Source of the DNA: a virus
Lineage: Monodnaviria > Loebvirae > Hofneiviricota > Faserviricetes > Tubulavirales > Inoviridae
IMG/VR virus record: IMGVR_UViG_2579779034_000001
Strand: one strand, 5' to 3'
DNA: 8,848 nucleotides
Both the position numbers and the translations under genes were made by a program. The stretch's first letter is position 1. Each line of letters starts with the position of its first letter. Of the stretch, positions 1,770 through 8,848 are shown piece by piece. The notes under the pieces were generated by a model. It ran no database searches. It worked only from the letters and a program-made list of their open reading frames with translations, and was not told the DNA's origin.

Positions 1770-1798
1770 AACGTGCAGTGTTGGTAATACTGCACGTT
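1770..1798 (-). terminator. Hairpin downstream of the 60-aa regulator gene (minus-strand terminator or attenuator)
   Basis: Perfect 10-bp stem 1770-1779 AACGTGCAGT with 1789-1798 ACTGCACGTT and a 9-nt loop. On the minus strand it is followed by CTTTATT and lies 18 nt after the stop at 1816. Confidence 0.45.
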
Positions 1799-1815
1799 TG
1801 TACCATTCGTGGTAC

Positions 1816-1998
1816 TTAATCCTTTTGTTTGGCAGACATGAGATCTTCTGCTGCATCTTTAGAGTAGTTATCAATCAGATAACCTAAAATCTCTGTCCAT
1901 GTAATTGTTTTTCCTAGTTTTACACTGGCATTTATAGCCAGTCGTTCTAGTTTCATTTTTCTTTCTTCCGTCACGTTATAAGTCGTGCGCTTTGCCAT
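1816..1998 (-). CDS. Small putative DNA-binding regulator (60 aa), divergently transcribed from gII
   Basis: 60-aa basic N-terminus (MAKRTTYNVTEERKMKLERLA). Position and orientation mirror the repressor-replication arrangement of integrative filamentous phages such as rstR-rstA in CTXphi. Function is inferred from context only. Confidence 0.5.
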   Translation of the reverse strand: MAKRTTYNVTEERKMKLERLAINASVKLGKTITWTEILGYLIDNYSKDAAEDLMSAKQKD

Positions 1999-2040
1999 TT
2001 TTTACGCTCGTTCAATGCAATATTTGAAGTGAGTATACAT

Positions 2041-2125
2041 GCTCATGAACTCATATCATCCAAGCCTCTTGAACTCACTAGCTCACTGGTGTAATGTTTA
2101 AACACTAATGAACTACTGAACTCAT
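2041..2125. promoter_or_regulatory. Divergent control region with four TGAACT(C/A)(A/C)(T/C) iterons; candidate gII promoter, operator and/or plus-strand origin
   Basis: TGAACTCAT at 2046-2054 and 2117-2125, TGAACTCAC at 2070-2078, TGAACTACT at 2109-2117, plus related GCTCACT and GCTCATG. Possible sigma70 promoter toward gII: -35 TTGAAC 2069-2074, 17-bp spacer, -10 TAATGT 2092-2097. Possible -10 TATACT on the minus strand (plus 2032-2037) for the regulator. Confidence 0.45.
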
Positions 2126-2167
2126 GTGTTAGTAAGTCGTCATTTTTGCAATTTTGAGGATTTATTC

Positions 2168-3220
2168 GTGATCGATTGGCTTACCGGGATTTTCCCTTGC
2201 ACACACAAACCGCTTCCGGCGGGGAGTGTTGTCAGCGTTGATGCTGACGGTGCAATTGAGTGGGAAACCGTTAAGCGACTGACTGTTCGCGGCTCGCATG
2301 AAGCAACGATGAAAGTACGATCGATAGGATCTAATGGCGAAGGTAAAGCGACACATTTGTACATTGATGGTAATCCTTCCAAGTTTCTGCAGGGGCATTC
2401 TGTTGTTGGGTCGGATGATATACAAGGGCTCATGTTGACGGTCTATGCCAGGATTTTATCCTTATTGAATATTCCTCATGATTTAGCGTCTTATAAAGCC
2501 GTTATGGCAGGTCAGTATAAAATTTCACGTGTTGACATTAATTACATGTATTCATTATCTACGCTGGAAAATGTCAGATCATGGCTTTATGCCGCCGAAT
2601 TTAAAGCTAAAACACGCCATGGTCGCGCATGTGGGAAAGGCGGTACAGTTTATTTAGGTAAAAACTCCCGTCGATGGAGTCTGAAATTTTATTCAAAATA
2701 TGATGAACACGTTTCTGGTAAAAAAGGGCACCAGATAGCCGAAGAGTTTGTACGAGCCGGGTTACTGGACTGGACGAAAGATAAATTACGTATTGAATTA
2801 ACATTAAGAACAACTGAGCTTATTGATTTAAATTTAACGCTTGGCGCTAACTGGAATATGAAAACACCACGTCAATTATTCTCTGAATATGTAGGGAGAA
2901 TAGAAATGAATCAGAATGCTATTTTAAGTGATGAAAAAATAACGAAACTGCCAAGAAAAATACAGTCAACTTATTTACTTTGGAAACAAGGGGCTAACAT
3001 GAAAGAAATGTTACCTCATAACACTTTTTATCGCCATAGAAGAGAATTGCTTTCGTTCGGTATCGATATTAATTTCTATTGTGATTCACCAGACTCTAAT
3101 AACGTTGTTCCGCTAATAAGAACGCTGGAAGCCAAGCCAGCGGAAATCCCCTTATGGATTTATGAGAAAGGTTTTATTTTCGATTACAACCGTATTTCGC
3201 ACGCCAGTAGCTGGCATTAA
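2168..3220 (+). CDS. gII: Replication initiation protein, pII-like rolling-circle nickase
   Basis: GTG start at 2168 preceded by RBS TGAGGA (2155-2160). N-terminus (M)IDWLTGIFPC aligns with M13 pII MIDMLVLRLPF as recalled. Internal matches PSKFLQGHSVVGSDD vs PAKVLQGHNVFGTTD and NNVVPLIR vs NNVVPLVR. The ORF track's longer start at 2126 overlaps the iterons and is less likely. Confidence 0.85.
   Translation: MIDWLTGIFPCTHKPLPAGSVVSVDADGAIEWETVKRLTVRGSHEATMKVRSIGSNGEGKATHLYIDGNPSKFLQGHSVVGSDDIQGLMLTVYARILSLLNIPHDLASYKAVMAGQYKISRVDINYMYSLSTLENVRSWLYAAEFKAKTRHGRACGKGGTVYLGKNSRRWSLKFYSKYDEHVSGKKGHQIAEEFVRAGLLDWTKDKLRIELTLRTTELIDLNLTLGANWNMKTPRQLFSEYVGRIEMNQNAILSDEKITKLPRKIQSTYLLWKQGANMKEMLPHNTFYRHRRELLSFGIDINFYCDSPDSNNVVPLIRTLEAKPAEIPLWIYEKGFIFDYNRISHASSWH
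2906..3220 (+). CDS. gX: Putative nested in-frame pX analog (C-terminal 104 aa of pII)
   Basis: In-frame ATG at 2906 (Met261 of the 2126 frame) preceded by GGGAGA. In Ff phages pX is produced from an internal start of gII. Inferred by analogy only. Confidence 0.35.
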   Translation: MNQNAILSDEKITKLPRKIQSTYLLWKQGANMKEMLPHNTFYRHRRELLSFGIDINFYCDSPDSNNVVPLIRTLEAKPAEIPLWIYEKGFIFDYNRISHASSWH

Positions 3221-8562: not shown

Positions 8563-8796
8563 ATGCAATTTTTCACATCCAGCGATACTGTAATGTTATG
8601 TGCGAAGACCTGCGATCGCTGTGGTCGCCATGCGAAGACGGTGGTAGATGACATTGAGTTCAATGAGTTTCTGTCTGTTAATCACTTAGCTGGATACGGT
8701 TCAATTTTTGGTGACAGTAATCGCTTAAAACTGGATTTATGCCAACATTGCCTGAAAGACGTCCTGGGCCAGTGGATTACGGTCTGTGACCAATGA
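8563..8796 (+). CDS. Hypothetical Cys-rich putative zinc-ribbon protein, 77 aa (accessory)
   Basis: Strong RBS GAGGAG 5 nt upstream of the ATG. Cys pairs CDRC (residues 17-20) and CQHC (60-63) plus C13 and C75, compatible with a Cys4 zinc-binding fold. Function unknown. Confidence 0.62.
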   Translation: MQFFTSSDTVMLCAKTCDRCGRHAKTVVDDIEFNEFLSVNHLAGYGSIFGDSNRLKLDLCQHCLKDVLGQWITVCDQ

Positions 8797-8831: not shown

Positions 8832-8848
8832 ATTGGTGCGCATAATGT
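8832..8848 (+). other. Start of the right-junction dif site (XerC arm), truncated by the window end
   Basis: ATTGGTGCGCATAATGT is identical to 1-17. GGTGCGCATAA-TGT is the beginning of the canonical dif core. Confidence 0.7.

Follow-up and report, generated by a model that had tools for sequence, protein, structure and literature searches.

The window analysed here, 8848 bases long, is a single unit of a dif-integrated filamentous prophage of Escherichia coli of the UPphi901-like type described by Shapiro and Putonti (PMC7307601), and the region under study lies between its replication initiator gene, gII, and a small divergent gene encoding a 60-residue protein. This protein is likely (probability about 0.75) to be a ribbon-helix-helix (RHH) transcriptional repressor, with a set of short repeats between the two genes as its operators. 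The basis is computational and comprises the repeated boxes themselves, their clustering and phasing, fold prediction, synteny, the co-variation of boxes with the regulator and their independence from the initiator protein pII; from this evidence we infer DNA binding, repression rather than activation, cooperativity, the promoter positions and immunity. The open reading frame (ORF) of the small gene is UPphi 'h3', whose function was left unassigned when it was described (PMC7307601).

Operator-like boxes and their distribution among relatives

The initial annotation had described a small gene diverging from gII across a region of about 170 bp that holds four TGAACTMMY repeats, and all of these elements were recovered. 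The small gene occupies 1816-1998 on the minus strand and gII lies on the plus strand; since gII more likely begins at GTG 2168, the spacer is taken as 1999-2167 (169 bp), and the repeats are found on the plus strand at 2046-2054, 2070-2078, 2109-2117 and 2117-2125. TGAACTMMY was matched five times in the 8848 bases against 0.43 expected, a count reached in none of 200 shuffles. The bare hexamer TGAACT was not enriched window-wide (seven occurrences, 5.2 expected), and the signal therefore lies in the clustering of the repeats. Three of the window's four exact TGAACTCA/TGAGTTCA 8-mers fall inside the spacer, a density of about 18 per kb versus 0.12 per kb elsewhere. The box, TGA-AC-TCA, differs from its own reverse complement only in the central AC/GT and is an 8-bp near-palindrome, and the boxes are arranged in 8-bp phase in three clusters (O1, O2 and O3; Table 1) of two or three boxes each. 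The reported absence of a LexA box was also confirmed, as CTGT-N8-ACAG with up to one mismatch does not occur in 1999-2167 and its sole one-mismatch match in the window is at 8784.

Twenty related loci (designated by L numbers) were compared; a genome scan with narrow alignment had returned only four close loci. In all relatives fetched (36-100% identical), the small gene is divergent from the replication initiator gene, with a gap of 130-195 bp. Boxes in the spacers were counted as TGAACTCA or TGAGTTCA with up to one mismatch, the background being 0.3-1.3 per kb. Every one of the ten loci whose regulator carries the beta-strand KR(T/A/M)TYNVTE holds two to seven boxes in the spacer, versus none of the nine with other beta-strands; the tenth box-free locus, that of E. 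coli NC101, has no RHH gene. A prediction made beforehand proved correct for a Providencia locus (L023), which is only about 60% identical overall but keeps the beta-strand, and in which seven boxes were found. Other repeats stand at the same place in the remaining lineages, namely ATGCATGCAT-type repeats in Yersinia, Dickeya and phage If1, TGTGAGC in a Pasteurella locus and a related 'Inoviridae sp.' metagenome locus, GCATGC in Vibrio, and GTATAC-type repeats in Aeromonas and phage I2-2.

The boxes do not follow the initiator in this way. They accompany the window's own pII type (type A) in the window, L005 (95% identical) and L026 (90%), a second type (type B) in L017, L018 and L023-L025, and a third, unrelated Rep in L007; type-B pII is 65-75% identical to that of Yersinia L008 and, over short alignments, about 26% identical to that of the window. 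Conversely, boxes are absent from I2-2, whose pII is 56% identical, and from NC101 (L027, 2600-3217), whose pII is 86% identical and in which the regulator slot holds a 148-residue helix-turn-helix protein beside a 171-bp spacer with other repeats. Repeats of an Ff-type origin would co-vary with the initiator, whereas here three initiator types are found with the same boxes. Because the boxes are doubly dissociated from pII, the repeats are read as operators of the small protein and not as pII sites. Of the two roles that the initial annotation had offered for the repeats, that of operators for the regulator is thus supported, the boxes co-varying with the small protein and overlapping both predicted divergent promoters, and that of plus-strand origin repeats bound by pII is contradicted. 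As a separate observation, sister prophages of the NC101 type were seen in about 115 E. coli genomes and represent a clean swap of the regulator module.

With respect to the predicted promoters, O1 exactly fills the 16-nt spacer of the regulator's promoter, the -10 block of which (GAGTATAC on the plus strand) is kept in most box-carrying relatives. A TCATGA(A/G)(C/T)TCA block of O1 is kept across nine relatives, and the orientation of the O1 box is reversed to TGAGTTCA in L018 and L024. At the predicted gII promoter, TTGAACTCA is invariant in ten aligned relatives and TA-N3-T recurs at 17-nt spacing; every lineage, those with other box types included, has a TTGnnn/17/TAnnnT pair in this position. 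The O2 position holds inverted pairs in L018 (TGAACTCA followed by TGAGTTCA) and L023 (TGAACTCA followed by TGAGTTAA). Counted from the predicted gII transcription start, O3 extends from about +6 to +29, and two or three phased boxes of varying orientation are found at its position in relatives, which carry at the cluster positions TGAGTTCA or inverted pairs such as TGAACTCATGAGTTCA. In the 10-sequence alignment of the spacer, the invariant blocks are the boxes and the two promoter-like elements, and the intervening stretches vary. A terminator-like stem at 2076-2091 was considered and rejected, as it falls within the promoter spacer and the aligned relatives do not preserve it.

The gII product was matched by the Pfam models Phage_CRI (4.7e-71) and G2P_X_C (2.3e-29). 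Its start is most likely GTG 2168, as in RefSeq, with GAGGA at 2156-2160 as the Shine-Dalgarno sequence; the start at GTG 2126 given in the ORF list is a probable overcall, GTG 2168 being the annotated start and the one behind GAGGA. Since the start is taken as GTG 2168, O3 lies in the untranslated leader.

Table 1. Positions of the regulator, its putative operators, the predicted promoters, the candidate origin and gII in the window.
Feature	Position	Strand	Remarks
Double hairpin, candidate plus-strand origin/pII site	1770..1815	+	outside operator set; just past regulator 3' end
Regulator gene (UPphi 'h3')	1816..1998	-	ATG start; predicted ribbon-helix-helix DNA-binding protein, RstR-like by position
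Regulator promoter (predicted)	-35 ATGATA 2059-2054, 16-nt spacer, -10 TATACT 2037-2032	-	promoter scan
Operator cluster O1 (putative)	2038..2053	+	weak box CATGCTCA (2038-2045), then TGAACTCA (2046-2053)
gII promoter (predicted)	-35 TTGAAC 2069-2074, 17-nt spacer, -10 TAATGT 2092-2097	+	read from sequence
Operator cluster O2 (putative)	2070..2085	+	TGAACTCA (2070-2077), weak box CTAGCTCA (2078-2085); over gII -35 and spacer
Operator cluster O3 (putative)	2109..2132	+	TGAACTAC (2109), TGAACTCA (2117), weak inverted-type TGTGTTAG (2125); 8-bp phase
gII replication initiator (type A, 350 aa)	2168..3220	+	RefSeq start; presumed regulated gene

The 60-residue protein and its proposed action

Conservation of the small ORF is indicated by its RefSeq annotation (hypothetical protein), by its many homologues, the protein belonging to phrog_2503, and by a codon comparison pointing to purifying selection, with 24 synonymous and 4 nonsynonymous differences over 53 codons relative to L017 and 15 and 2 relative to L026. 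The protein is basic, as originally described, if mildly so (isoelectric point 9.0 overall and 10.3 for the N-terminal half). Its AlphaFold monomer model (pLDDT 81) displays an extended N-terminus and two helices, in agreement with the RHH topology of an N-terminal strand and two helices within about 45-60 residues, and the short repeated subsites in fixed phase expected of an RHH operator are present as a sequence feature at 2038/2046, 2070/2078 and 2109/2117/2125. An RHH fold is therefore well supported as a prediction. Residue position 8 varies most between the specificity groups.

A tblastn search aligned the protein at 40.7% identity (95% query coverage, E about 5e-6) with RstR of GQ466611 and KR063268, which are records of 'environmental'-type CTXphi and pre-CTXphi, so that homology to proteins named RstR exists. 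'RstR-like' proteins from Vibrio anguillarum phages are 42% identical to it, and an unannotated ORF within the If1 'major intergenic region' is 58.5% identical. Each of eight CTXphi rstR alleles specifically represses its own ig-2 promoter (PMC11509585), and allele 6 looks like a member of the same family as the 60-residue protein, judged only from its primer-encoded termini.

In the deposited sequence of phage I2-2 (L003, about 2720-2919, minus strand) the regulator homologue is split by a one-base frameshift and reads MKKPVRTTASITTEKK...TWTD, then ...NYVIENYTELAEKK in another frame, which represents either an old sequencing error or repressor loss in a non-integrating phage. The If1 'major intergenic region' (L020, 1263-2468) contains an unannotated 63-residue regulator homologue and a double hairpin of type B (see below), and directly upstream of the regulator gene lies a look-alike of an IS200/IS605-type insertion sequence (IS), consisting of a TnpA-like ORF and ORF348, which we take to be TnpB-like.

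In the proposed mechanism, one RHH dimer would occupy each 8-bp box, and adjacent dimers could bind cooperatively because the boxes stand in 8-bp phase and in clusters of two or three. Since O1 takes up the whole promoter spacer of the regulator gene, its occupancy would lead to autoregulation, and occupancy of O2, over the -35 element and spacer of gII, together with O3, after the predicted start of transcription, would block gII transcription. Low gII expression would in turn mean less amplification of the replicative form and a fall in downstream virion genes and virion output, the dif-integrated tandem prophage would stay quiet, and any infecting phage that shares the box type would be silenced, rendering the cell immune. 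R4, T6 and N8 would face the DNA according to a weak register with CopG, an assignment that is speculative. By likeness to the rstR/ig-2/rstA system of CTXphi, it is reasonable to suppose, with the initial annotation, that the region sets the choice between replication and quiescence.

Several observations weigh against this repressor-operator reading. No significant match to a curated RHH family was obtained, as Pfam yielded no match and no RHH model for the 60-residue protein and only sub-threshold ParG matches (best E 0.055) over 42 family members, phmmer and hmmsearch against the PDB gave sub-threshold hits only (with the profile, ParG at E 0.4 and TTHA0139 at E 0.79), Foldseek returned nothing significant for the protein, and the hhalign alignment to CopG was weak (probability 4.5%). 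The beta-ribbon of the fold exists only in the dimer and the model is that of a monomer, and the tie to a functionally tested RstR allele amounts to about 20 primer-encoded residues. The promoters are assigned at consensus level: that of the regulator is the only sigma-70-like match of the scan in 1650-2300, where 1.2 would be expected by chance, and that of gII was not called by the stricter scan of the same interval. The weak boxes at 2038, 2078 and 2125 agree with the box at only 4-5 of 8 positions. Finally, the relatives are phylogenetically non-independent, and the contrast of 10/10 versus 0/9 overstates the number of independent events.

A candidate origin and the rival explanations

The double hairpin on the far side of the regulator gene consists of a 13-bp stem (1770-1782/1786-1798) and a 6-bp stem (1800-1805/1810-1815) and folds as DNA with -16.3 kcal/mol (z -5.9). 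Hairpin 1 is 91% identical to its I2-2 counterpart over 34 nt, the gII genes being only about 65% identical, and in NC101 hairpin 1 is identical and hairpin 2 carries compensatory changes. The corresponding positions are 2545-2590 in L027 and 2666-2699 in L003, with type-B elements in L008-L025. Loci with type-B pII hold at the same place a different, very conserved double hairpin, GGTTCGGGGTTCTGTGACACCCGAACTTT with a co-varying second stem, and CTGTGACAC is common to this element and the pre-CTXphi sequence (L019) on the far side of rstR. The plus-strand nick of CTXphi is made by RstA in Ig-1, next to rstR, with Ig-1 and rstA sufficing for rolling-circle replication (PMC8265649), and RstR binds ig-2, the rstAB promoter region (PMC11509585); in the f1 origin, which is also built of a pair of neighbouring hairpins, nicking occurs in the loop of the first (PMC11765958). 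The plus-strand origin of the present phage is probably located at 1770-1815, to judge by its position, which corresponds to that of Ig-1 in CTXphi, by its architecture and by its co-variation with pII. The Ff/I2-2-like origin string ACTCTTGTTGCAAAATCGCAAC was not found in the window. Termination of the small gene was rejected as the main role of hairpin 1, because the minus-strand T-run that follows it in the window is not conserved, being absent in I2-2, L005/L006 and the type-B loci, in which the hairpin sequence is kept.

The box motif loosely resembles the Ff repeats. The repeats also lie directly upstream of gII, a position resembling that of the Ff origin in the f1 architecture (PMC11765958), and could on that account be pII-binding repeats at which rolling-circle replication starts; however, this is extremely unlikely in view of the three unrelated initiators beside which the boxes occur and their absence beside pII proteins of 86% and 56% identity (NC101 and I2-2). 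Moreover, no conserved nick-type hairpin adjoins the boxes, the only conserved hairpins being those specific to the pII type at 1770-1815, on the other side of the small gene and separated from the boxes by more than 220 bp, and the nick of CTXphi is made in Ig-1 (PMC8265649), not in the rstR-rstA spacer that RstR binds (PMC11509585). A role for the RHH protein as a TraY/TraM-like accessory at the origin, where it would help or gate pII, or as an activator of gII, has in its favour that the fold alone does not distinguish such proteins from a repressor. It is nonetheless judged unlikely, as the module occurs in free association with three types of initiator and two of hairpin, a pattern poorly compatible with a specific partner at the origin, the boxes lie on the -35 element and spacer and in the early transcribed region, which are typical positions for a repressor, and homologues hold the rstR slot of CTXphi.

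The Fic/Doc gene found downstream in some relatives would agree with a type II antitoxin that is paired with downstream cargo and uses the repeats as an autoregulatory operator only. This explanation is very improbable, since neither of the two downstream genes of the window (139 and 367 residues) has a Pfam match or a toxin-like annotation, the small gene is retained although the cargo changes (of 229 UPphi phages, 221 have h3 and about 56 have h4 and h5; PMC7307601), the 88-150 bp between the small gene and the cargo contain conserved hairpins, and the boxes cover the gII promoter too. Sites for a host factor have a precedent in RovA, which reportedly controls YpfPhi and binds the putative promoter region upstream of its replication gene (PMC4266046). 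However, the motifs differ within a host (L012 versus L026 in Salmonella; UPphi versus NC101 versus If1/I2-2 in E. coli) and the same boxes recur in Providencia, Serratia, Brenneria and Scandinavium; because it is thus the phage protein and not the host that the motif tracks, host-factor sites do not fit and are hardly credible. An RHH repressor acting through the boxes as its operators is accordingly preferred.

Context, significance and known systems

In E. coli strain AZ184, which matches the window at 99.8%, the phage forms a tandem array adjoining hipA, which we take to be beside the expected chromosomal dif site. The gene order is that of Ff/IKe (gII, gV, gVII, gVIII, gIII, gVI, gI, gIV), with two additional genes following gIV and, past a dif-like site, three more on the reverse strand. 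This site, at 3-37 (GGTGCGCATAA-TGTGCGACTCG-TTATGTTGAAA), has a longer central region than dif, and no full dif site was found in the window at up to three mismatches. As the last 15 bases (8834-8848) are a copy of the first 15, the window covers a single array unit exactly. About 400 mostly conjugative plasmids match bases 8-99 at 90-95%, and no Rfam family was found in the window. The cargo genes, at 103-1206 (367 residues) and 1308-1727 (139 residues), are evidently UPphi 'h5' and 'h4'; both lie on the minus strand beyond the hairpins, and since the regulator gene precedes them in the same orientation, a common transcript is possible.

UPphi-type prophages are common, having been reported in 331 of 26,397 assemblies (PMC7307601), and the regulator/box module was found in 162 of 5,426 complete E. 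coli genomes. A circular Salmonella 'plasmid' of 7938 bp (NZ_CP140410.1, L028) encodes regulator and pII proteins identical to those of the window, seems to represent this phage in its free replicative form, and carries a Fic/Doc 'death-on-curing' gene in place of the 139- and 367-residue genes. A contig labelled as a Candidatus Nanosynbacter metagenome-assembled genome (L004) contains an enterobacterial phage module with a 100%-identical regulator and is probably a binning error.

Divergent repressors with allele-like specificity that control replication genes in integrative filamentous phages are already known, and no new kind of mechanism is revealed here. What is new is the assignment of this role to UPphi 'h3', the predicted RHH fold, the 8-bp box architecture, and evidence that regulator plus operators and initiator plus hairpin are separately exchangeable modules. 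As a probable RstR-like RHH repressor with defined operators, h3 offers a directly testable handle on what keeps UPphi phages quiet and predicts which phages are mutually immune, and the control region is set apart from the likely origin, which is relevant to vector building and replication mapping in this group.

More tentatively, and with some doubt, the regulator and its 8-bp boxes may form a portable immunity cassette that is exchanged independently of the replication module, with at least seven beta-strand/box types defining heteroimmunity groups and with cassette loss possibly marking a shift to a productive phage. If this were true, enterobacterial, Vibrio, Aeromonas and Pasteurellaceae inoviruses would exchange the cassette, and its loss might mark the passage from a quiet dif-integrated prophage to a constitutively productive, non-integrating phage, as exemplified by the frameshift in I2-2, the adjacent IS insertion in If1 and the complete absence of the cassette in Ff; the regulator would also be the main determinant of silence for prophages of the present type in extraintestinal E. 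coli.

Among known systems, the Ff (f1/M13) origin with its two adjacent hairpins resembles 1770-1815, the likeness not extending to the TGAACTCA boxes, and differs in that no repressor gene lies between the origin and gII. NC101 shares with the window the genome position, a spacer of similar length (171 bp), hairpin 1 and the pII type (86%), but has a 148-residue helix-turn-helix regulator, other repeats and no TGAACTCA boxes. The paper on YpfPhi describes YPO2273, which takes the place of rstR, as an untested RstR-like protein (PMC4266046); this protein may be one of these NC101-type helix-turn-helix regulators. A literature search found no paper on RHH-type RstR-like repressors in these phages; for a Pseudomonas inovirus, an omega-like RHH ORF is on record. 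The RHH omega repressor of pSM19035 itself recognises a 7-bp heptad unit, compared with 8 bp here, has no detectable sequence similarity to the 60-residue protein, and governs a regulon of plasmid copy number and partition rather than a phage replication gene.

In the MetJ system, every near-palindromic box of 8 bp (AGACGTCT) accommodates an RHH dimer and two to five head-to-tail boxes are bound cooperatively, and the window matches it in the near-palindromic 8-bp boxes, the 8-bp phase and the two or three boxes per cluster. It differs in that no sequence relationship is shown and no corepressor is indicated, and in that box orientation varies among the phage relatives. The El Tor RstR is a larger helix-turn-helix protein working with LexA. 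In contrast, the present regulator has a predicted RHH fold, with no LexA box in 1999-2167 and no antirepressor evident. The likeness to CTXphi resides in the arrangement, since a divergent gene and repeated spacer sites over the predicted initiator promoter are found here too, in the same order of origin region, opposite-strand repressor gene, spacer with repeated operators and initiator (rstA or gII), and in an allele-like specificity, with several box types occurring at one position (PMC11509585).
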